A DNA stretch of 64,000 nucleotides from an uncultured Planctomycetaceae bacterium (GCA_963803125.1 CAWDLR010000003.1:2579548-2643547), one strand, 5' to 3'. Numbered from the stretch's first letter, positions 4,116 to 51,547 are shown. Notes: a model not told the origin generated them from the sequence alone. Made by a program: numbers and translations.

Positions 4116-5063
4116 TCAATTCTTGCCGTATCCCTCAACTTCGATGCCGCCGCGAAGGTTGTCGCCGTCGTGCAGTCGGCGGCGATGGCCGTCGTAATCG
4201 AGGGTAACTTCGCGGCCGGGGTCGATCTTGCGAATCGTCCCGCCGTGTTCGCCGACCTTGAACTTGCCGCCTTCCTGCAATTGCCACACCTTGCCCCCCA
4301 TCCGATCCTGAATCCATACCTGGCGGAAGCCGTCAACCTCGGTAAACCCGGTTACAAAGGTAAACTGTGCGGTATCGACGGGCTGCGGTTTCTCGGGAGT
4401 CTTGTCCGCCATAGTCCCTCGGGGCGGCGGCGTGTAGCGGGCAAACAAATTCCGCTTGACGATCGGGTCGCGGTAATCGTCGACCTTGGTCAACTTCAGC
4501 CCTGTCCCCTTCTCCTTGCTAAGCTGGTCCTTGCGGTCGGCGTTGGGCAACGACAACGCCTCGATCGTAATGCCCACGTCCAACTCGCTGCTGTGCTCGA
4601 CGGGCTTCATCGTCAAGATGCGAATCTGATGCAGATGACCCGCACTGTAGAAGTCGTAGAGGAACTGCGTCAGGTCGGCCAACGACACATGGCCGCGAAC
4701 CGTGAACTTCATCCGCGTATAGATGTTGGCCCGCGACTCCATGTTATTCGATTCGACCGCGAGCGGATGGAAGTGACAGCGGTCGGCCAGGCCCCGCAGC
4801 CAGGTCTGGTAGAGCGTCCGCGCCGTGATCCGATCGGAGGGCAACGCCCGCTTGCGCCAATCCCGCATCAGTTTTTGGTCACGCTGGTCTTCGGTCGCCA
4901 GTGCGCGTTTGGTGAGGACCTCCGGCTTCAGGTTTTGCAGGTCGGCGGTAAGCTCGGTAGAGGAACGGCTCTCGAAGCCGAACAGGAGAAAATAGGCGGC
5001 CAGCACGGCCAGCAGTCCGCCGGTGGCGTAGGCCAGGGTCTTCTCGCGGCGTTGCAGTTTCAT
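4116..5063 (-). CDS. GspM/PilO-like secretion-system assembly protein
   Basis: ATG at 5063 overlaps the upstream stop (ATGA, 5060-5063). Single N-terminal TM (LAYATGGLLAVLAAYFLLFGF) followed by a periplasmic domain. Occupies the last position of a G-to-M ordered operon. Confidence 0.55.
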   Translation of the reverse strand: MKLQRREKTLAYATGGLLAVLAAYFLLFGFESRSSTELTADLQNLKPEVLTKRALATEDQRDQKLMRDWRKRALPSDRITARTLYQTWLRGLADRCHFHPLAVESNNMESRANIYTRMKFTVRGHVSLADLTQFLYDFYSAGHLHQIRILTMKPVEHSSELDVGITIEALSLPNADRKDQLSKEKGTGLKLTKVDDYRDPIVKRNLFARYTPPPRGTMADKTPEKPQPVDTAQFTFVTGFTEVDGFRQVWIQDRMGGKVWQLQEGGKFKVGEHGGTIRKIDPGREVTLDYDGHRRRLHDGDNLRGGIEVEGYGKN

Positions 5064-6506
5064 GGCTTCGCCCCCCGATCGAACTTGACGGTGTGGTCGA
5101 AGCGCCACGAATACTGCTTGTCGGCGGGGTCTTCGCTGCTGCTCTTGCTGGTGATCCGACCGACGCGGGCGCGAATGCGCTCCTCCATCTCTTCGATGAC
5201 ATGAACGTCGCGTGCCGAGCCTCTTAGATCCACTTGGATCTCATCCTGCCGGACGGCGAACGACAACTCATGCAGGATCGCGTCTTTGGACCGCGGAAGA
5301 CCCTTATTCAGGGCGAGAAACCCGTCGAGCCAGTCCGTGTCCTCGGCCGTCCATTTCGAGATCGCGGCGGCGGCAGTGCGAGCCATCTTCGCCTCGGGCT
5401 TGTTGGCGTCGTTGTCGAGCCGCTTGATCTCATTTTGCAGGTTTTCGACTTCGCAGGCCAGCAGGTAGTGGTCGATGCGAGCATAGGCGAAGTACGCCAG
5501 CAGCAGCACGCCCACGGCCGAGCCGGCCATGATCCACTTCCGCCGCTTGCTGGGCGGTGCGGGCCGGCGGCGGGGGTGTAAGAAATCGACCGCGGGGGTC
5601 TCCTGCCGCAGTTCCGCCTGGCACATGCCCAACAACGGGGCGAAACGCCCGGGGTGTTCCAGCGGTTTACCGCGCAGGCCCGGGCCGCGATCGAATCCGC
5701 CGAACGGATCGAACAACTGCACCGGGATCGATAATTCGGCCTCGACGCTCCGCGCCAAGTCGGCGTGGATTCCGTCCTGGCCGCAGAGCACGATCGCCGC
5801 GACCTTCCGCCCGTTCAACTGGCTCTGCACGGCGGCCATCGTCAGGCGGATTTCGGCCAAGAGCGCCGGCAAGGGGGGCGAACCGCCGCCAAGCCGCATC
5901 GTCCGCAAGAATAACGCCTTGCCGTCGCAGACCGCCGTCAGATCGACCTCGTCGGAGAGCATATCCACCAGCAGCCGCAACTCCCCCTTTGCCCCGGCCA
6001 GGTCGCCGGTCAGCAGCGACGCCGCGGCGCAGGGGCGAAGCAGGAGCCGCTGCATCTTGAGGTCCGCCCGCTGGCAAACCGCCTCGATCTGCCGGATCGC
6101 CGCCGGACCGATCGCCATCGCCAACACCGTGCGCGGCCCCTCGGTCCCCTGGTCGATCGGCACAAAGTCCAACAGCCATTTCTCGTCGAGCTCGTTGAAC
6201 TCCCTGGCGGCCTGAAAATGGACCATATCGGGCAGTTCTTCGTCGGGCGCGGGGGGAAGTTGAAGCTGACGCAGCTCGATGCTGCCCCGGCCTATGGCGA
6301 CCAGCGTCGGCGGACGCCCGATGCCGCGAGCGTCCAATTCCTCGGCAATCCGCCGGCCGACGTGGTCTTCCGCCTCGCCGGCCGCCGCGTCCTCCTCGTT
6401 CCAAGGAACCAGGAAGGCGTGCTCGATGAAAATCCGGCTGCCGCGCCGAAGCGGTGACCACACGGATCTCATGGCTGTTCCATTCGAGGGCGAGAAGTTG
6501 AGACAT
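5060..6506 (-). CDS. GspL-like protein (PilM-like actin-fold domain, TM, then PilN-like periplasmic domain); N-terminus appears frame-shifted near 6440
   Basis: 492-aa ORF 5060-6538. Cytoplasmic domain, then TM (WIMAGSAVGVLLLAYFAYA), then coiled-coil and alpha/beta tail. A second frame (ATG 6506) encodes MSQLLALEWNSHEIRVVTASAR, which joins naturally to ..SRIFIEHAFLVPW of the main frame. Confidence 0.65.
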
Positions 6507-6626
6507 GCGTCGGGCTCACAGGTTGTCTGTCGCGCCATCTTCGCAGTTGGAGTGACAGTTGCACTTCCAACTCAACCGTGCCTGGGCGACACAATCGAAA
6601 TCACATCACACGAGATCGGGTACGTG

Positions 6627-6779
6627 CTTTTTCACTAGCCCAGGCGTTTACGCCCGGGAGCGAAGAACCCACACCACCGCGCTTTTTCGACTGGTCCCCT
6701 TAAGGGGACCGAATAGAAAAGGAACAGGGGATAAGGCGGCCCTTCCGACCCAGGCGTGAACGCCTGGGCTAGTGAAAAG
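6627..6779. repeat. REP family A composite (CTTTTCACTAGCCCAGGCGTTTACGCCTGGG) inverted pair
   Basis: Arms at 6627-6658 and 6749-6779, with an inner palindrome GGTCCCCTTAAGGGGACC. Lies between gspK and the gspL-like gene. Confidence 0.85.
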
Positions 6780-6901
6780 ACGCGATATCAACGTCGAACT
6801 CGGAGAACTCCTTCAATTGTCAGTGCTGGACGGCATTGCAGCAAAACGTTTTCACTCCACCCCTTATGTCGAGGCATAACTCATGGGTTCACAACTTGGA
6901 T

Positions 6902-8515
6902 TCACGGGCTGTTTGTCGCGGCCTCGCGGGCGGCGGTCTCGACCGGAAAGCCGGTCGGCAGACGGCTCATATCTTTCCAGAATAATACCTTGGTGGGCGA
7001 TTTGCTAGCATCAAGGATGACTTCCAGCCGCGCCGTCGGCCCACCCCCCTCGAAACTGCCCAGGATTTGGGCCCGATAGACCTTCCCCCCCGCCGTAATG
7101 ACGGGCAATATCTTCTTCATCGTCGCCAGCGGGATAATCCCCTCGCATAGGGGCCATGTCTCGTACTTGTGGTCGTCCGAGTCGTTCTTCGGGTCCTCGA
7201 TCCGCTTGGAGATGATACTGTCGGCCATGTCGCTGGTCATGTTCGGAATGCAGAGCAGGACCGCCCGCGGGGCCTGGTTGATGTTGATCCGGCCTTTGAT
7301 CGTCTCCTCGGTGCTGGTGGTGGCGTTCTCCATCAACTTCGGCAGGTCGCTCGACATCGAACCTTCGGTGAAGGGCGACTTCACAGTGATAGGACGCGGC
7401 GTCTGCTGATGGCCTTGTGTTCCGGTCCCGGCCGCCGGCGTATAGGTCGCGGTGGCACCGACCAGATCCAACACGGTCGTCAACTGGACGGTGGCCTTTA
7501 GCGTCGAAACGTCGACGTGGTCCGCTACGGTGCTCACGGCGACTGCGCTTGGCGGAGGCTGGCCGTTTGCGCTGTCCGGCGCCGGCTTGCCGCCGCTGCG
7601 ATACAAGACGATGAACATGGCAGAGTTCTCGTCGAGCGCTTTCGCCAAGTCGTCGTGGAGTTTTTGCAGATCGGTACCGTTGAGATTGATTTTCTGGGTG
7701 CCGTCGGACTTGAGCGTCGATTCGGCGCTGTAGATCGTGAGGTAGGCGGCCCAGCCGTGGTCCATCGAGCCGTCGGAGTTGTCGACTTGGGCCATGGGAT
7801 CGCCGGAGGCGGGATCGACCAGGCCCATCGGAACCGCATCCAGCCCGTATAACAACTGCGGCGTGACCCCGCGCACCAGCAAGAGCTCGTCGATCGACTG
7901 GAGCGAGCCGTTTCGCGGGGCATATGGGGGCGTGAGCGAATTGTAGTAAGACGATTCCGCCCCGTTGTCGCGCGGCGTGTCGTCGGTGTCGAGCCAATCG
8001 AGAATCGCGTCGGCGATCTCGTCGGTCATGCTCGGCAACTGCATCAGCGTCGCCTTGGCAACGGGATTGGGATTCGAACTTGAACTGGCGCTGCCCGCGA
8101 TCGTGACCAATTTATCCATTTCCAGCAGGGTGTTGAGATTGATCCGCATCGATTCGTCTTGCAGGCCGTAGCGGACGCCGCTGATGCGGTTGTTTTCGTA
8201 CGTGGGGGCGATGACGGAGAAGTAGCCGCACAACTGCGGCGTGGGGTCGGGGGCGGCCACGGTGTGCCCAAAACGCTGGGAATTGTCATAGATGCCGCCG
8301 GCGTCGGTCTGGTCGTCGGCAGTGCGGTCGAGGAACTGGCGGGCCACCTCGGCGCCCGATTGGGCGAAGGCGCGTGCCCGGGCCTGCCGGGCAGCGGTCT
8401 CGACGGCCTTCCGTTCGTTGAGCATCAACTCGCAAAACGTCATGCTGGCCAGCGCCAGCAAGGCGACGACCACCAGCACCAACAACAGGATGACGCCGCG
8501 TCGGTTGGTTTTCAT
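6902..8515 (-). CDS. gspK: Type II secretion minor pseudopilin GspK-like
   Basis: N-terminal hydrophobic segment (RRGVILLLVLVVVALLALASM). GspK-like motifs (MRINLNTL, ILDWLDTDD, SIDELLLVRGVTPQLLYGL, RININQAP). Confidence 0.75.
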   Translation of the reverse strand: MKTNRRGVILLLVLVVVALLALASMTFCELMLNERKAVETAARQARARAFAQSGAEVARQFLDRTADDQTDAGGIYDNSQRFGHTVAAPDPTPQLCGYFSVIAPTYENNRISGVRYGLQDESMRINLNTLLEMDKLVTIAGSASSSSNPNPVAKATLMQLPSMTDEIADAILDWLDTDDTPRDNGAESSYYNSLTPPYAPRNGSLQSIDELLLVRGVTPQLLYGLDAVPMGLVDPASGDPMAQVDNSDGSMDHGWAAYLTIYSAESTLKSDGTQKINLNGTDLQKLHDDLAKALDENSAMFIVLYRSGGKPAPDSANGQPPPSAVAVSTVADHVDVSTLKATVQLTTVLDLVGATATYTPAAGTGTQGHQQTPRPITVKSPFTEGSMSSDLPKLMENATTSTEETIKGRININQAPRAVLLCIPNMTSDMADSIISKRIEDPKNDSDDHKYETWPLCEGIIPLATMKKILPVITAGGKVYRAQILGSFEGGGPTARLEVILDASKSPTKVLFWKDMSRLPTGFPVETAAREAATNSP

Positions 8516-8542
8516 AGCCCTTGCATCTGCTGCGCGAATGTG

Positions 8543-10231
8543 CTATTTGCCTTTGCCCGAAGTGCCGCCGCCGGCTTTGCCACCGCCGCTGCCCCCGCCT
8601 TTGCCTCCGGTGCCGCTACCAGTCCCGCCTCCTCCGGTGGTTCCGCCCTTGCCTCCTCCGGCGGTTCCTCCCTTGCCTCCTCCGGCGGTTCCTCCCTTGC
8701 CTCCTCCGGCGGTTCCACCCTTGCCTCCTCCGCCACCGCCTGTACCGCCTCCGCTGTTACGGCTGCCGCCGGTAGGCGACGTTGTCGTGCCGGCGCCGGA
8801 GGTGGTGCCGCCGGCGGTGCTGCCGCCCAAAGCCGGGCTGCCTTGGGCGTTTGGCAGATCGACAAGCATGTCGTAGACGGTGAACGAAGCGGCGCCGCCG
8901 GCCGCGGCCGTGGGGGTGGCCGGTCTCGGCGATGCCCGCTGGATCGTGATCGCCACTCGGATCGCGCTAGGCAATCCGCCTTCGGTATTGGAATCCCATT
9001 GTTCATAGGTGGTCGAGCCGGCGTAGTAGGTGAATTGCAGATTGGCGACCTCCGGGGCCATTTTGGCGATGCCTTGAGTCAAGAGATCCGACTGCCCTTG
9101 TTGCATCGCGGCGACGTAGGCCGTTCGATCGATCTCGCGGCGATACAATCCGGTCCCCGTCGAGCTGTCGCCGCGTTGCAGCGGCGTAGCCGTGCCCGGA
9201 TCGCCGAGACTATAGGTCACCGTCTTCACGTCGCTAAGCGCCATGTAGTCTGCCGGGTCGCCATTGACCGGCATTGCCATGCCAATCGGCCGCACGCGGC
9301 GGGTCGTGTCCATTTGCAGGCACTGGGCCGTGCCGGAGATTCCGCTGGGAATCAAGTTGCCGGAATCGGACGAATCGGACCCTGTCGAGGTCCCGCTCGC
9401 CGTCGAAGCTGCCGCCGTCGTCGAAGTCGCCGCCGTGGACCCGGCGGACGTTCCCCCCATCGTCAAGGTGCCGTTCGCCTGGGAGTAGGGGACGGAGTTG
9501 CGGAGATCCTCGGCGATGTGTTGCAGCAGCGTCCGCGCCAGTTGGGCCTCTTCGACCTGCCCGCGACTCTTGTCGGCCACGCCAAGATGGATGTGCATGG
9601 CCATGCCGATCAGGCCAAGAATGACCGTGGTTAGCGCCAGGGCGAGAATCACCTCCAGGAGCGTGTAGGCCGAGTGCTTGCGGCACCCCCCCTCTCCGCC
9701 GATCGTGCGGCCCTTTTCACTAGCCCAGGCGTTGTCGTCTGCGGCAAACACGCGGCCCTTTTCACTAGCCCAGGCGTTTACGCCTGGGAAGCGAGGGCCT
9801 CTGCCAATGTTCTCACTTTTCTCTTCAGCCCCCTTCAGGGGGTGGCGATCGGCTGGTTGGTGAATCGTGGCGCGAGAGCGGCTCGGTTGCGTCCCCTGAA
9901 GGGGACTGGAAAGAAAAAGGGAATAATTCCCGGCCTCCTCTTCCCCAGGCGTAAACGCCTGGGCTAGTGAAAAGGGACGCCCGCACAAGTGACGCGAAGA
10001 CACTGTACCCCGGCAACGCCGCAATCGTGAAAACGCACGATTCGCCGCCTCCTTTTCCCCAGGCGTAAACGCCTGGGCTAGTGAAAAGGGACGCCCGCAC
10101 AAGTGACGCGAAGACACTGTACCCCGGCAACGCCGCAATCGTGAAAACGCACGATTCGCCGCCCCTTCTTCCCCAGGCGTAAACGCCTGGGCTGGTGAAA
10201 AGGCACGTCTGGATCGGTTGCGGCGTTTCAT
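8543..10231 (-). CDS. GspJ-like minor pseudopilin with REP-derived N-terminal extension and Gly/Lys-rich tail
   Basis: ATG 10231 overlaps the upstream stop (ATGA). Pseudopilin hydrophobic segment YTLLEVILALALTTVILGLIGMA starts only at about 9667. Residues 1-188 are encoded by REP units. An alternative in-frame GTG exists at about 9751. The C-terminus carries GGKGGTAG repeats (24-nt period, 8646-8717). Confidence 0.6.
   Translation of the reverse strand: MKRRNRSRRAFSPAQAFTPGEEGAANRAFSRLRRCRGTVSSRHLCGRPFSLAQAFTPGEKEAANRAFSRLRRCRGTVSSRHLCGRPFSLAQAFTPGEEEAGNYSLFLSSPLQGTQPSRSRATIHQPADRHPLKGAEEKSENIGRGPRFPGVNAWASEKGRVFAADDNAWASEKGRTIGGEGGCRKHSAYTLLEVILALALTTVILGLIGMAMHIHLGVADKSRGQVEEAQLARTLLQHIAEDLRNSVPYSQANGTLTMGGTSAGSTAATSTTAAASTASGTSTGSDSSDSGNLIPSGISGTAQCLQMDTTRRVRPIGMAMPVNGDPADYMALSDVKTVTYSLGDPGTATPLQRGDSSTGTGLYRREIDRTAYVAAMQQGQSDLLTQGIAKMAPEVANLQFTYYAGSTTYEQWDSNTEGGLPSAIRVAITIQRASPRPATPTAAAGGAASFTVYDMLVDLPNAQGSPALGGSTAGGTTSGAGTTTSPTGGSRNSGGGTGGGGGGKGGTAGGGKGGTAGGGKGGTAGGGKGGTTGGGGTGSGTGGKGGGSGGGKAGGGTSGKGK
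9709..10205. repeat. REP family A array including a 114-bp tandem unit (starts 9943, 10057, 10171)
   Basis: Repeated CCCAGGCGTAAACGCCTGGGCTAGTGAAAAG units. Two full 114-bp copies plus a partial copy. All lie inside the 5' part of the gspJ-like ORF. Confidence 0.85.
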
Positions 10232-10707
10232 TGTCCGGAGGCCCCTGACGATGAGGAATTGCCACCTGATCCGCTGCTGCTGTTGTTGCTGCTGCCGCTT
10301 TCACTGGAAGACGTATAGTTGGGGTCGGGAATCCAGCGGACCAGCGAGAAACTGACGGGGTGTTGTGCCGCCGGGAGATTGCGGGTTACGGTGACGCAGA
10401 CGGCGATCAAACCGTCTTCATCAGTCGTTTGCGTGTCGATGGAGAAGAGCCAGCCCGGCACGCTGGGGTCGAGCGAAGCGGTCATCGTCGAATCGAAGGG
10501 CGTGGCGCTGACCTGCTCGGCCGGGGTGATGCCGATGGTCACTTCGGCCATCTTGCTTTCGCAGAGGAGTTGGGCGTGGGCCAGATCGCGGGCGATCTGG
10601 GCATTTCGCAGCGCCAGGCGGCCAGATTCTCCCAGCACGGCGATCGAACCGGCCAGCACGGCCAGGGCGAGAATCACTTCCAGCAGAGAGAAACCGCCCT
10701 TTCGCAT
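10228..10707 (-). CDS. GspI-like minor pseudopilin
   Basis: Short leader plus prepilin motif (MRKGGFSLLEVILALAVLAGSIAVL). Ser/Gly/Asn-rich tail. Confidence 0.7.
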   Translation of the reverse strand: MRKGGFSLLEVILALAVLAGSIAVLGESGRLALRNAQIARDLAHAQLLCESKMAEVTIGITPAEQVSATPFDSTMTASLDPSVPGWLFSIDTQTTDEDGLIAVCVTVTRNLPAAQHPVSFSLVRWIPDPNYTSSSESGSSNNSSSGSGGNSSSSGASGQ

Positions 10708-10713
10708 TGGCCG

Positions 10714-11556
10714 CTACTCCAAGGTCGAGCCCGCGTCGGCAACCGTCGCCGTGGCCGTGCTCCCTCGCAGCATAACGCGCAACGCGTAGCTCTGGTTGCA
10801 ACTTAAGATCAACTGAACGTCCGAGGCGGTCCCGTCCGGGTAGAAGAAGATCGGCTCGGACCAGCCGGCGGCCGGCTGATTTTGCGCGGAGGCCGCCGAA
10901 GGCGCTGTGGTCGTGTTCTCGGCAGGCTGCTGGCCGAGGAACTTGACCCCCGTCGGCAGCGTCTTGTTCTCGACGGGTGCAGCGGCATCGGCGGGGGAGG
11001 GCGTGTTGCCGCCGGTCGAACTCGCCGACGCTGGCGCGCCGGTGGCGGTGTTTGCCTCCGGTCCGCGATCCGGCTCGCTGTAGTAATGATCGCCGCCCAC
11101 CTCGTAGCGAAAGGCGTAGGTGCGGCCGGAGCGCATCGCCTCGGTGCGGGCCTGACACCACTCGGTGCGGACTTCGTCGGCCGCCGAGTGCAGACGACGG
11201 TAGGCCAACGGCTTTTCCAGCGCCGGCCAGACCAGCGCCGCCACGATCACCACAATTGCCACTACCAGCAGAACCTCGACCAAGGTGAATCCGTCGCTTG
11301 CCTCTGGTTCCCACGCTCTGCGTGGGAACCGCCCGCCCTTGCCACGTCTTCCTGGTTCCCACGCTCTGCGAGGGAACCGGCTCCCGTCGTCACCCGCCCA
11401 GGCCGTTCCCACGCGGAGCGTGGGAACGAGGAAAGCGCGGAGCGCGGGAACGAGGAGAGCGCGGAGCGTGGGAACGAGGAAAGCGCGGAGCGCGGGAACG
11501 AGGAGAGCGCGGAGCGAGGAAACCAAGAAGGATGTCCATCCATGACGATATCTCAC
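10714..11556 (-). CDS. GspH-like minor pseudopilin with REP-derived N-terminal extension
   Basis: GTG 11556 overlaps the gspG stop (GTGA). The prepilin motif GFTLVEVLLVVAIVVIVAAL begins at codon 89 (11292). Codons 1-88 are REP family C units. Confidence 0.6.
   Translation of the reverse strand: MRYRHGWTSFLVSSLRALLVPALRAFLVPTLRALLVPALRAFLVPTLRVGTAWAGDDGSRFPRRAWEPGRRGKGGRFPRRAWEPEASDGFTLVEVLLVVAIVVIVAALVWPALEKPLAYRRLHSAADEVRTEWCQARTEAMRSGRTYAFRYEVGGDHYYSEPDRGPEANTATGAPASASSTGGNTPSPADAAAPVENKTLPTGVKFLGQQPAENTTTAPSAASAQNQPAAGWSEPIFFYPDGTASDVQLILSCNQSYALRVMLRGSTATATVADAGSTLE
11307..11525. repeat. REP family C array (GTTCCCACGC-NNN-GCGTGGGAAC)
   Basis: Units at 11307-11331, 11354-11378 and 11405-11427, plus short tandem GAGGA(A/G)AGCGCGGAGCG(C/T)GGGAAC repeats to about 11525. 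Lies inside the 5' part of the gspH-like ORF. Confidence 0.85.
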
Positions 11557-11990
11557 CGCGCTGCCTCCTCATTCCAGTTTCCAATATCATCCGGCGTGCC
11601 GTTGACACGGTCGGGGCCAAAAGACCAGACGTCGAAGCTGTCTGGGTTATGCTGCCCGGGACACTGGTACTGATACGGATTGCCCCAGGGATCGGGCGGA
11701 ATATCACTGTCCAGGTACGGTCCCGCCCATTTGGTCGGGTCGGGAAGATCTTGGGGGCAGCTTCGCAGCGCCTGAAGGCTTGTGGGGAAGGAATTGACGG
11801 TTCCTTCGTAGGTCTGTATGGCGCTCTTTAGCAGCAGAACCTGCGCCTTCGCCGCTGCTTTGTTCGTTCTGGCGCGGACGCCCGAGTACGTCCCGACCGC
11901 GAACGAAGCCAGGATGACCAGAATCGTCATGACCAACAATACTTCCATCAGGGTGAAACCACCCTTTTGCCGCGGGGGCGATCGCATCAT
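11553..11990 (-). CDS. gspG: Type II secretion major pseudopilin GspG
   Basis: ATG 11990 preceded by GAGGAG. Leader and motif MMRSPPRQKGGFTLMEVLLVMTILVILA. Classical GspG signature DPWGNPYQY. Confidence 0.85.
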   Translation of the reverse strand: MMRSPPRQKGGFTLMEVLLVMTILVILASFAVGTYSGVRARTNKAAAKAQVLLLKSAIQTYEGTVNSFPTSLQALRSCPQDLPDPTKWAGPYLDSDIPPDPWGNPYQYQCPGQHNPDSFDVWSFGPDRVNGTPDDIGNWNEEAAR

Positions 11991-12093
11991 GTCCAACTCC
12001 TCTTCTGTCGGGGGATAGCGACCACTATCATACTGCGGCCGGCGTGAATTATCAAGCGCATGCCAGCACCGGCCATGGCCGATCAGTTTTCGC

Positions 12094-12176
12094 TGTAGGA
12101 GGCGACTCCTGTCGCCGATTTGCCGCGGTTTCGGCCGGGCGGCACTCCAAATCGGCGACAGGAGTCGCCTCCTACA
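12094..12176. repeat. REP family D pair (TGTAGGAGGCGACTCCTGTCGCCGAT)
   Basis: Arms at 12094-12119 and 12151-12176. The same family occurs at 28547-28618 and 43441-43513. Confidence 0.85.
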
Positions 12177-12461
12177 ATCCCCAAACTGAACAACTGAGCG
12201 GCCCTGCAGCGCCGGCCACAGAGCGCCATCCTCATGATTTAACCCCGCCCAGGGGAGATTGGGTCGCAAATACGCAAATGTTATAATAGACGGTCATAAT
12301 ACCTGTTTCGTTCCGCCTGAAAGAAGATTGGAAGCCTGGCAACCGGGGGATATGCTGTAGCATTCCGGTGTAGAACATCGCTTTGCACCCCCGAGCCCGC
12401 CCAATTACGCTGGTAGATGGCTCTCGTGCGACCGAAATCTTCGGTCTCTTGCTGTCCGCCC

Positions 12462-13658
12462 ATGAGTGAAACGCCGCGCGTCGTCCTAATGGTGATTCCA
12501 TCCTCCGCCTACGATCGTGGGCTGCTGGAGGGGATCACCTCCTATGCGCAGATTCATGGGCCCTGGGTTTTCTTGCTCTCCGGCGATCATCCCGACCTGC
12601 CGATCCCCGCTTCCGACAGCCTTAGCGGAGACCTCTCGGAAGAGGAGCATCGGAGCAGCGGCAAGGTGGCTGCCGCCACCCCCAGTTTTGAGCGGCTAAA
12701 CGCGACGGGGCTCATTGGCAGGATATCAAATCCGTTGACGGCGAAGCGACTGCTCTCGGCAGGATTGCCGGCGGTCGCCAGCTTCGCCTTGGCAAACGCC
12801 GACATCGAACGCCTGCTGCTCCGCTCGAAGGCATCGGAAATCGTCGCCGACGCGGCGCGGACGGGGCAATTCGCCGCCGAACATTTTCTCGATCGTGGGT
12901 TCTGGAACTACGCCTTCTGCGGTTACGAAGGTCGCGCCTGGGTCGAGCGTCGCCTGGAGGGATTTGCCGAGCGGCGGCTGGTCTGGAAGCAGGAGGTGCC
13001 GCGGGTCGTGGCCTGGCTGAAATCGCTGCCGCGCCCCGTGGCGGTGATGGCCTGCAACGATAAGCGCGGGCGACAGGTCATCGAGGCCTGCCTGCTCGCC
13101 GGGCTGAAGGTGCCGGAGGAGGTGGCGGTCGTCGGCGTCGACAACGATCACCTCTTCGGCAATCTCTCCAACCCGCCACTGTCGAGCGTCGCCCTGAACC
13201 TGAGCAAGGCAGGTTACCAGGCCGCCGAACTGCTCGATCAGTTGATGCGCGGCGCCGTGCGAAAGCCGCGGCAAATCGTGATCGAGCCGCTCTGGGTCGT
13301 GCCGCGCCGCTCCTCCGACGTGATCGCCGTCGACGATCCTCATCTGGCGATCGCCCTGCACTTCATCCGCGAACATGCCAAGGAAACCATCGGCGTGGAC
13401 GACGTGGTTGAACAGGCGGGAATCTCGCGCCGCGGTCTGGAGATTCGCTTCCACAACGTCTTGCGGCGCTCGATCCGCGGCGAAATCCAGCGGGTGCGGC
13501 TCGCGCAAGTCAGACAATTGCTGACGGAAACAAACCTCTCGGTCGATCGAATCGCCCAGCTTACCAGCTTTTGCAGCGTCTCGCACCTCGGCGGCGTCTT
13601 TCGCCATGAATTCGGGGCGACGCCCGCTCAGTTTCGCCGTCGTACCCGCGCCTTCTGA
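12462..13658 (+). CDS. XylR-like regulator (periplasmic-binding-protein-type sugar domain plus AraC-type HTH)
   Basis: N-terminal LacI/PBP-like fold (RVVLMVIPSSAYDRGLLEGI ... VAVMACNDKRG ... VAVVGVDND). C-terminal AraC HTH (VDDVVEQAGISRRGLEIRF ... SVSHLGGVFRHEFGATPAQFRRR). Confidence 0.75.
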   Translation: MSETPRVVLMVIPSSAYDRGLLEGITSYAQIHGPWVFLLSGDHPDLPIPASDSLSGDLSEEEHRSSGKVAAATPSFERLNATGLIGRISNPLTAKRLLSAGLPAVASFALANADIERLLLRSKASEIVADAARTGQFAAEHFLDRGFWNYAFCGYEGRAWVERRLEGFAERRLVWKQEVPRVVAWLKSLPRPVAVMACNDKRGRQVIEACLLAGLKVPEEVAVVGVDNDHLFGNLSNPPLSSVALNLSKAGYQAAELLDQLMRGAVRKPRQIVIEPLWVVPRRSSDVIAVDDPHLAIALHFIREHAKETIGVDDVVEQAGISRRGLEIRFHNVLRRSIRGEIQRVRLAQVRQLLTETNLSVDRIAQLTSFCSVSHLGGVFRHEFGATPAQFRRRTRAF

Positions 13659-50689: not shown

Positions 50690-50710
50690 CCTTCACCCGG
50701 CAATCCGCTC

Positions 50711-50869
50711 GTTCCCACGCGGAGCGTGGGAACCAGGGAACGCGCAAACCGCACCATTCCCTCGTTCCCACGCTCTGCGTGGGAACGCCCTAGCCCTCGG
50801 CGCTGCGCGTCATTCGCTGCGACGCCGAGCGTCGGGGGAGGGGCGGTTCCCACGCGGAGTGTGGGAACC
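50711..50869. repeat. REP family C cluster
   Basis: Units at 50711-50733, 50764-50786 and 50847-50869, each followed by CAGGGAACGCGCAAAC in two cases. Confidence 0.85.
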
Positions 50870-50890
50870 AGGGAACGCGCAAACTACACC

Positions 50891-51547
50891 ATGCAGCTAA
50901 TCTTGCGAACACTGATCATTTTGCAGACGATTGCCGTCGAGTTGGCGGCATTGGCTGCGATGGACGACGTCGAGACGGCCCCAATCTCGGGGCCGATGCT
51001 CGCCGCCTCGGGCCTGATCGTCGCTTACCTCTCGTTTCGCCGCAACCGGCCCTGTGGGCTCTGCTTCGGGTCGATCGCGCCGACCGCTTATGTGCTATCC
51101 TTCTCGCTTATCAGCGGATTGGGCTGGAGCAAATACGACGCGTGGACGCCGATGTTCGTCATCGTCGCCGTGGTTGCCGCGTTTCATGTGGTGGCGGCGT
51201 TTCTTGCGATCGGCGAAATCGCCGCAACGCTGGAGGATAATCGCCCGAAGCTCCCCTTTCAGTTCAGCATCTTCTCCATGCTGGTGCTGATGCTGCTGGT
51301 TTCGATCTTTTTCGGATCGTACCAAACCTTCGGTCCGGCTGGGGCGGGAATCGGGGCGCTGTTTGCCTATGCGGTCATCCTCACCTATTTGCTGCGGCAG
51401 TTTCACCTCATGCGCGTGCGGCAAAAAGAAGAGCTTCGCGAGAAAAGTTGGCCCTCCGCTTCGCGCGACACGGCAATCCGGAAAAACGAGGGAGCGTCCC
51501 GAGAACAGCCGGCACCTCACCCAGTTCGCAACCTGAGACAACTGTGA
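50891..51547 (+). CDS. Hypothetical polytopic membrane protein
   Basis: ATG 50891 lies just after a REP cluster. About 6 hydrophobic segments. Its stop overlaps the next gene's GTG (GTGA, 51544-51547). Confidence 0.5.
   Translation: MQLILRTLIILQTIAVELAALAAMDDVETAPISGPMLAASGLIVAYLSFRRNRPCGLCFGSIAPTAYVLSFSLISGLGWSKYDAWTPMFVIVAVVAAFHVVAAFLAIGEIAATLEDNRPKLPFQFSIFSMLVLMLLVSIFFGSYQTFGPAGAGIGALFAYAVILTYLLRQFHLMRVRQKEELREKSWPSASRDTAIRKNEGASREQPAPHPVRNLRQL

Follow-up and report, generated by a model that had tools for sequence, protein, structure and literature searches.

Palindromic repeat arrays in frame within the leader-coding regions of two planctomycete pseudopilin genes

This work concerns a gspG-H-I-J-K-like operon of pseudopilin genes, located on the minus strand at 6.9-12.0 kb of a 64,000-nt stretch of DNA from an uncultured Planctomycetaceae bacterium (GCA_963803125.1 CAWDLR010000003.1:2579548-2643547), hereafter the window. 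An earlier note on this DNA had pointed out that in the gspH-like and gspJ-like genes the region between the start codon and the class III signal is occupied by repetitive extragenic palindromic (REP) sequences kept open in frame, and had offered three explanations: the leaders are very long and encoded by the repeats, translation initiates inside the repeats, or the genes are disabled. The question raised by this locus is which of these holds. Comparative evidence best supports the first, and we consider it probable that the repeats in both leaders are translated and tolerated, translation through the arrays and cleavage by the prepilin peptidase being what we infer from the sequences. The insertion sites can be placed, the ancestral starts are kept, the frame is conserved across genomes and the mature parts of both proteins are under purifying selection.

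The window was compared with 45 related loci (L001-L045), fetched via the gspK-like gene and taken from genomes and metagenomes of Planctomycetota. Metagenome-assembled genomes of uncultured Planctomycetaceae and of Thermoguttaceae-like bacteria are the best relatives, GspK of L001 being 80% identical to that of the window, and L045 is an independent assembly that is 99.75% identical to the window. The arrays are identical in the window and in L045. Array junctions were read by eye and from pairwise alignments, because three-way MAFFT alignments put the short sequences wrongly across the insert.

Arrays between the coupled starts and the hydrophobic segments

Both genes start at a codon coupled to the upstream stop: the TGA of gspG-like overlaps the GTG of gspH-like (GTGA, 11553-11556) and the TGA of gspI-like overlaps the ATG of gspJ-like (ATGA, 10228-10231), at the coordinates first reported. 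From these starts, 88 codons precede the Gly codon (11292-11290) in front of FTLVEV in gspH-like, giving a leader of 89 residues, and the Tyr codon of YTLLEV in gspJ-like (9667-9665) follows a leader of 188 codons; the corresponding leaders have 6-8 residues in the short-leader state described below. The neighbouring genes have the short leaders that had been read for them, MMRSPPRQKGG↓FTLMEV in gspG-like and, with a normal 5 residues, MRKGG↓FSLLEV in gspI-like (arrows mark the cleavage site). Neither long leader contains an in-frame ATG. GTG 11412 and GTG 9751, previously taken for the only alternative starts, turned out to be the nearest ones, and others are present in frame (TTG 11526, and GTG or TTG codons at 10138, 10117, 10102, 10024, 10003 and 9988). 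The 40 codons nearest the gspH cleavage site contain neither a canonical nor a near-cognate start, and from the nearest internal GTGs the leaders would still be at least 41 residues (gspH-like) and 28 residues (gspJ-like) long.

The intervening DNA had been described as wholly REP. This description applies to the arrays, which are repeats, but not to VRYRHG at the start of gspH, MKRRN at the start of gspJ and the last 3-5 codons (..HSA), which are ancestral. The gspH array (family C; Table 1) has GGAT duplicated at both junctions, and its last codon is a new Gly in front of FTLVEV. Hairpins of GTTCCCACGCnnnGCGTGGGAAC are found at 11307-11329, 11355-11377 and 11405-11427, and its tandem, which can be read with a period of 24 (4.7 copies) or of 48 (2.3 copies at 96%), encodes LRALLVPA/LRAFLVPT. 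The gspJ array (family A) has GCCGCAA duplicated at both junctions, inverted arms of 37-45 nt that are 84-97% complementary, and four CCCAGGCGTAAACGCCTGGG hairpins; the 114-bp tandem that had been seen in it comprises 2.5 copies at 95% identity. In the whole window CCCAGGCGTAAACGCCTGGG has 7 sites and GTTCCCACGCnnnGCGTGGGAAC has 6, the expectation from shuffled sequence being 0 for each. The copies outside the two leaders (CCCAGGCGTAAACGCCTGGG at 6639, 6749 and 58660; GTTCCCACGCnnnGCGTGGGAAC at 50711, 50764 and 50846) are all intergenic.

Empty sites, allelic series and reading frame

A comparison of orthologous operons, proposed earlier as a check, revealed short-leader empty sites, and the long leaders contain repeats. 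No orthologue was found with a long leader free of REP similarity: each has either an empty short-leader site or a long leader with dispersed palindromic repeats. The gspH site is empty in L001, L002 and L038, where a GTG overlapping the gspG stop opens the sequence V-R(N/H)R(H/Q)-G↓(L/M)TLMEV. This reads GTG AGA AAC CGT CAC GGA ↓ TTG ACG... in L001 and L002, with the Gly directly followed by LTLMEV. In the window GTG AGA nAn CGT CAn GGA is kept, and is followed by 249 nt of repeats and then by GGA↓TTC ACC TTG (FTL). L001 and L002 share the Shine-Dalgarno sequence of gspH (GGAGG, 7 nt before GTG 11556). The array is missing from L001, L002, L038 and L041.

The gspJ empty site of L002 reads ATG GAA CGC CGC AAT CAT TCC GCC↓TAT (M-ERRNHSA↓YTLLEV), and L044 has a GTG version of it; the window has ATG AAA CGC CGC AAC, then 540 nt, then CGC AAG CAC TCG GCC↓TAC. 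Between these states lies a series of gspJ leaders of 8, 26, 95 and 188 residues (Table 1), all of them in frame, and the net differences between the leaders of the window and L001 are 228, 6 and 45 nt, each a multiple of 3. L001 and L038, whose gspJ leaders have 95 and 26 residues, differ by a synonymous divergence (dS) of 0.09 in gspH and of 0.41 in gspJ; this contrast suggests recombination or fast turnover at gspJ.

The reading frame was examined in spacers of at least 100 nt, taken from the upstream stop to the +1 codon of gspH or gspJ, with the gap between gspK and the pilM-like gene of the same loci as control. The spacers are open in the mature frame in 15/22 cases and in the other two frames in 8/44 (Fisher p = 1e-4), and the high-GC clade has 4 stops in frame 0 as against 67 in frames 1 and 2 together. 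The control spacers, which contain the same repeat families, are open in the downstream frame in 0/12 cases and hold 47 in-frame stops. One could argue that the arrays are GC-rich repeats devoid of stops and that the extension of the open reading frames (ORFs) is a meaningless result of chance and composition. Almost all six frames of the gspH array are open, and the intergenic family-C array after the ComEC-like gene is likewise open with its downstream gene, to GTG 50726, showing that family-C arrays can lengthen ORFs by composition alone. For gspJ this reading is largely refuted: its array has no stop in the mature frame but 4 and 6 in the other frames. Given also that all 12 control spacers contain downstream-frame stops and that the empty sites place the ancestral start upstream of the arrays, we regard chance as extremely improbable. 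At the ComEC-like locus itself, the region 50690-50900 is open in frame with an ORF for a membrane protein, from GTG 50726, and the real start of that ORF is probably the ATG of MQLILRTL.

The same arrangement is found in many related genomes, where it goes back to independent events. A coupled ATGA or GTGA start followed by an open leader of 44-151 residues is found in other loci, with other repeat families, and most of the open cases have a start codon that either overlaps the upstream stop or directly adjoins it, in many instances preceded by an AGGAG-like motif. The opening residues agree with those of the empty-site leaders: L040 gspJ starts with VEPRNH, matching MERRNH of the empty site, and L040 gspH with VTDHQ, matching VTSHRG in L041. 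The spacers of the relatives have 14-mers in common with other loci and genomes and show strong folding, which indicates that they too are dispersed palindromic repeats. L008, L027, L031 and L043 have long gspI spacers (161-466 nt) in which the mature frame alone is open, so the phenomenon is not restricted to gspH and gspJ. The gspI gene of L016 shows apparent frameshifts, possibly long-read errors.

Selection, processing and mRNA structure

The ratio of nonsynonymous to synonymous substitution rates (dN/dS) of the mature parts of H and J is 0.25-0.37 in every pair, and the gspJ genes of the window and L001, both of which carry an insert, fall within this range at a dS of 0.88. A mature dN/dS of about 0.3 implies that gspH and gspJ are not decaying. 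In the leaders, substitutions are spread evenly over the codon positions, with 12/14/13 between the gspH leaders of L004 and L007 (0 indels in 180 nt, 78% identity) and 13/19/15 between the window and L001, whereas mature gspH shows the coding signature of 25/15/76 between L004 and L007. Even substitution together with a kept frame is expected of a stretch that is translated and later discarded. Judged by this pattern, the peptide sequence of the leader appears to drift freely while its frame is held.

These data are consistent with the following course of events. REP/MITE-like elements (MITE standing for miniature inverted-repeat transposable element), which are abundant in the lineage, would have inserted 15 nt past the gspG stop and 11 nt past the gspI stop, in the zone close behind the 3' end of an ORF where such repeats usually land (PMC3733652); because the genes of the operon overlap, this zone falls in the leader of the next pseudopilin. 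Only in-frame, stop-free copies would have survived, and would later have expanded in tandem by units of 24, 45 and 114 bp, all of them divisible by 3. In-frame insertions would be tolerated since the leader stays in the cytoplasm and is cut off after the -1 residue by the prepilin peptidase, leaving it under almost no sequence constraint. Translation would run from GTG 11556 and ATG 10231 through the arrays, and the basic leaders of 89 and 188 residues would be cut at G↓FTLVEV and A↓YTLLEV to give normal mature pseudopilins. Both leaders are hydrophilic or basic overall, with net charges of +10 (gspH) and +18 (gspJ), which fits the positive-inside rule and an N-in topology.

Several observations weigh against translated and tolerated arrays. 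Leaders of 89-188 residues are without precedent. The gspH insertion is recent, since no relative except the near-identical L045 has it, and dN/dS therefore says little about the later fate of the gene; that gspH is functional with its insertion can be argued by analogy with the remaining loci. Within its leader gspH has a semi-hydrophobic LRALLVPA stretch (Kyte-Doolittle 19-residue maximum 1.82, with Arg every 8 residues), which could disturb membrane topology or targeting. With 0, 0 and 1 stops in its three frames, the openness of the gspH array on its own is mostly compositional and only its 1-in-3 frame match counts. Both assemblies, that of the window and L045, have some indel errors outside the arrays, and the gene caller of L045 sets the gspJ start at GTG 9751. 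Finally, L016 H and J, L042 J and the Pirellulaceae loci have an alternative architecture, in which repeats or a spacer with in-frame stops lie upstream of a short-leader ATG.

The gene call of L045 and the architecture of L016 and L042 also speak for a reading in which GspH is initiated at GTG 11412 (41-residue leader) and GspJ at GTG 9751 (28-residue leader), within the repeats; the arrays would then be intergenic spacers, the old coupled ORF would be untranslated or would act as a coupling upstream ORF, and hairpins around these GTGs could regulate initiation. Both GTGs are in frame, AAAAGGG lies 5-11 nt before GTG 9751, L001 gspJ has an ATG at -13, and for many REPs at ORF N-termini an extragenic position is probable, translation starting downstream of them (Di Nocera et al., PMC3733652). 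Such starts are nevertheless not conserved, the ATG at -13 of L001 being ACG in the window and L038 having only the coupled ATG, and in 7 long-leader loci the 30 codons next to the cleavage site hold no canonical start. The codon GTG 11412 is part of a hairpin stem and lacks a Shine-Dalgarno sequence, and the 41 residues that it would leave to the gspH leader are still repeat-encoded. Internal initiation also predicts no constraint on the upstream frame, yet the frame to the coupled start is open more often than the other frames and the controls, and the indels are multiples of 3. We consider internal initiation unlikely.

A leader length far beyond the known range (PMC4471445), an insertion in gspH not yet proven by long-term selection and the semi-hydrophobic stretch could also mean that the genes are disabled, the long precursors being mistargeted or unprocessed and gspH-like, gspJ-like or both becoming pseudogenes; the neighbouring pilM-like gene, which in the window is frameshifted by 1 nt, would point the same way. 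Against this, H and J have intact mature parts under the selection described above, and the gspJ insertion is common to the window and L001 across dS 0.88 with continued selection. Long-leader alleles persist between species, for example in L004 and L007, and the pilM-like frameshift is missing in L045 and is probably an assembly error. We consider loss of function very unlikely.

Prediction of the mRNA fold, which had also been proposed, gave -163 kcal/mol (z = -6.5) for the gspH array and -324.5 kcal/mol (z = -10.5) for the gspJ array. In the predicted fold the gspH Shine-Dalgarno sequence GAGGAGG (11556-11570) pairs with CUCUCCUC of the array (11490-11500). It is plausible, as far as these models go, that the arrays dampen H and J translation or protect the gspG mRNA. 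If the repeats are translated and tolerated, a likely side effect would be that the hairpins reduce or modulate translation of these low-abundance subunits, and they may also shield the upstream gspG message. In Escherichia coli, REPs and bacterial interspersed mosaic elements of the malE-malF type stabilise upstream mRNA and attenuate downstream expression within operons. The present arrays resemble them as stable hairpin arrays directly after the stop of an abundant upstream gene in a polycistronic message; the classical ones are untranslated and intercistronic, whereas these lie within the reading frame of the downstream gene. Each 24-bp unit of the gspH array holds an anti-Shine-Dalgarno-like CTCCTC. 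The gspJ leader contains a short, weakly terminator-like hairpin with a T-run (GGGAATTATTCCC TTTTTCTTTC; 9919-9931, minus strand), the stem of which is not conserved in L001.

A regulatory device maintained by selection, with hairpins setting stoichiometry by stabilising the gspG and gspI messages and throttling H and J, would be compatible with translated leaders. The very stable predicted structures and the pairing of the gspH Shine-Dalgarno sequence argue for it, as do the fact that in many genomes repeats recur at the same two or three junctions and the general view of REPs as post-transcriptional elements (PMC3733652). The closest relatives manage with empty sites, however (L001, L002 and L038 for gspH, L002 and L044 for gspJ); genomes vary in the families, lengths and exact sites of their repeats, leader sequences drift neutrally, and an insertion preference combined with a permissive site explains the recurrence equally well. 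Selected regulation is in our view unlikely. A speculative extension, to which we give little credence, is that planctomycete peptidases routinely process repeat-written leaders of 50-190 residues and that the arrays were co-opted as translated mRNA structures that tune the stoichiometry of H, I and J to that of GspG. If this were true, selfish repeats would have become operon-internal regulators without any need for intergenic space.

Relation to known elements, and neighbouring features

Palindromes in frame within genes are known from the Rickettsia palindromic elements (RPEs; Ogata et al. 2000, reviewed in PMC10969869). Like RPEs, the arrays are dispersed, palindromic and MITE-like, lie within ORFs in frame and without stops, in host genes under (purifying) selection, and encode a peptide located where function is undisturbed; this describes their behaviour, not family membership. 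The phylum is another one and no sequence relation is expected, the likeness being in behaviour. The present arrays differ in having one permissive site only, the cleaved class III leader, in being tandem-expanded to 180 codons, and in encoding a peptide that is presumably discarded and not displayed on the protein. As to MITEs, terminal inverted repeats and a target-site duplication are present in the gspJ element, where GCCGCAA is duplicated relative to L002; the target-site duplication of the gspH element is only 4 nt (GGAT).

GTAG/CGTC REPs lie mostly just downstream of ORFs and are in some cases intragenic (Di Nocera et al. 2013, PMC3733652). Their clusters encode 43-82 residues and are in excess at ORF N-termini, and whether N-terminal REPs are translated was undecidable in that study (PMC3733652). 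In the present case the translation of N-terminal repeats is approached through empty-site alleles and frame statistics, and with 83 and 180 codons the arrays exceed those clusters in length. Families A and C share with REPs the character of short dispersed palindromes (7 and 6 sites in 64 kb, with 14-mers common to other loci and genomes), but the extragenic location does not apply to 11290-11538 and 9677-10216, which lie downstream of the ancestral starts. No GTAG or CGTC tag was evident by eye in either family. An Rfam scan of 6400-12500 returned no known RNA family, only sub-threshold microRNA (miRNA)-like hairpin noise. A protein search with the 76-residue peptide encoded by family A gave 0 matches at E <= 1e-3 among 5.8 billion clusters, which suggests that such a reading of the element is uncommon in called proteins.

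Class III leaders have 6-26 residues, or about 15-30 in type IVb pilins (Berry and Pelicic, PMC4471445), and are cytoplasmic and removed after the -1 residue (PMC4471445); an archaellin leader of 26 residues has been termed unusually long (PMC12448462). The two genes share with class III signals the -1 Gly (gspH) or Ala (gspJ), an aromatic +1, a +5 Glu, a hydrophobic helix some 21 residues long and a basic leader, and with type II secretion system (T2SS) and pilus operons the G-H-I-J-K order and a nearby secretin gene. They depart from them in leaders of 89 residues (ending in Gly) and 188 residues (ending in Ala), encoded by mobile repeat DNA, which exceed the described 6-26 residues (up to about 30, ending in Gly). 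The absence of Gly at -1 of gspJ had been noted as unusual; Ala is indeed present, but it is no defect, being typical of the clade and found in at least 15 orthologues. We found no paper on planctomycete pseudopilin leaders.

What is new is a recurrent and specific target, the cleaved pseudopilin leader, with arrays of up to 180 codons. Comparative evidence also places N-terminal repeats inside a frame that is apparently translated, and the implied leader length would lie beyond the described range. If this is true, prepilin peptidase and SRP/Sec targeting (SRP, signal recognition particle) would be independent of leader length or sequence, a natural experiment for pilus and secretion research. 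The discarded peptide would be a refuge for selfish repeats in operons without intergenic DNA, and the arrays might control subunit stoichiometry from inside the reading frame. Gene callers disagree on these genes (coupled GTG and 280 residues for gspH, internal GTG for gspJ), which implies that pseudopilin starts may be systematically mis-set, a concern for repeat-rich, GC-rich genomes.

Table 1. Features of the operon, of its arrays and of the compared loci
Feature	Position	Strand	Remarks
Ancestral gspH start region	11539..11570	-	Shine-Dalgarno GAGGAGG, 7-nt spacer, GTG AGA TAT CGT CAT GGA (V-RYRH-G)
Family-C palindromic array, gspH	11290..11538	-	249 nt (83 codons), at Gly(-1) codon
Tandem of half-repeat units in gspH array, 24/48 bp (8 or 16 codons)	11412..11523	-	Tandem Repeats Finder
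gspH class III hydrophobic segment	11227..11289	-	FTLVEVLLVVAIVVIVAALVW, Glu at +5; N_methyl Pfam match
Ancestral gspJ start	10217..10231	-	ATG AAA CGC CGC AAC (MKRRN); matches empty sites of L002, L044
Family-A palindromic/MITE-like array, gspJ leader	9677..10216	-	540 nt (180 codons)
114-bp (38-codon) tandem in gspJ array	9926..10207	-	missing from L001
45-bp (15-codon) direct duplication, right repeat arm (family D2)	9693..9782	-	45-nt gap versus L001
Ancestral gspJ leader end	9668..9682	-	CGC AAG CAC TCG GCC (RKHSA), then Tyr+1; aligns with L002 CGC AAT CAT TCC GCC
gspJ leader, L002, L044			8 aa; empty site
gspJ leader, L038			26 aa; one repeat unit, RAFSLAQAFTPGE
gspJ leader, L001			95 aa; complete element with inverted arms
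gspJ leader, window			188 aa; L001-type element plus tandem expansions
Open long leaders			L004/L007 H 60 aa; L006 H 111 aa; L012 J 59 aa
Open long leaders			L018 J 64 aa; L039/L040 H 49 aa; L040 J 151 aa
gspI spacers	L008:7382-7847; L027:7879-8086; L031:8043-8266; L043:1035-1195		L008: 466 nt; stops 0, 3, 5
Alternative architecture	L016:7334-7621; L016:8400-9007; L042:4412-4583		e.g. MQRDRQG↓LTLMEV
Family-A intergenic copy, gspK-like/pilM-like gap	6639..6768	.	stops in all frames
Family-C intergenic array	50711..50868	.	22 nt after ComEC-like stop
gspG-like major pseudopilin	11553..11990	-	TIGR01710 103.7 bits (above cutoff), PF08334
gspH-like minor pseudopilin	10714..11556	-	280 aa from coupled GTG; PF07963 23.6 bits, residues 89-109
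gspI-like minor pseudopilin	10228..10707	-	TIGR01707 35.1 bits, below cutoff
gspJ-like minor pseudopilin	8543..10231	-	562 aa from coupled ATG; weak PF07963 and PF11612 matches
gspK-like gene	6902..8515	-	PF21687 68.9 bits; NF037980 110.7 bits, below cutoff

H, I, J and K match the corresponding family models weakly, and H, I and J have the prepilin N-terminal motif. The equivalog cutoffs were not reached by GspH (TIGR01708 gspH 33 bits versus 80; PF12019 19.2 versus 21) or by GspJ (PF11612 T2SSJ 17.7 bits versus 28); as these scores lie below cutoff, the names gspH and gspJ rest on the five-gene order G-H-I-J-K, which is kept in more than 40 Planctomycetota loci. The N-terminal methylation and cleavage motif is found in gspH (PF07963 above its cutoff of 21.2, and a TIGR02532 match), and gspJ, at 18.6 bits with PF07963, lies just under that cutoff but has A↓YTLLEV, Glu at +5 and the hydrophobic segment. 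The 280-residue gspH product is the source genome's own gene call. An exact look-up of the 562-residue GspJ in the protein collection gave no match, so the source annotation uses another start; the look-up is not decisive.

Nearby genes encode a secretin (18-2147) and a PilM-like protein (5060-6538). In the latter, pilM/gspL-like gene the conserved N-terminus MSQLLALEWNSHEIRV (ATG 6506) is out of frame with the rest (6430-6510, minus strand); the same region is in one frame in L001 and L002, and in L045 an extra C at window position 6446 restores the frame. This 1-nt frameshift probably reflects either an assembly indel or a polymorphism. It was rejected as evidence that the operon is decaying, the near-identical L045 being without it and having other indels of its own.

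A third repeat family is represented by a perfect long GTAG...CTAC palindrome at 12098-12172 (GTAGGAGGCGACTCCTGTCGCCGATT / AATCGGCGACAGGAGTCGCCTCCTAC), for which Rfam gave sub-threshold miRNA-like matches only. It stands just upstream of a sigma-70-like promoter before gspG, placed at 12055-12027 by a promoter scan. At the other end of the pseudopilin genes, the C-terminus of gspJ-like (8543-8830) is a Gly-rich low-complexity tail (GGGKGGTAGGGKGGTAGGG...) that stems from 12/24/48-bp tandem repeats and varies in length among the relatives.

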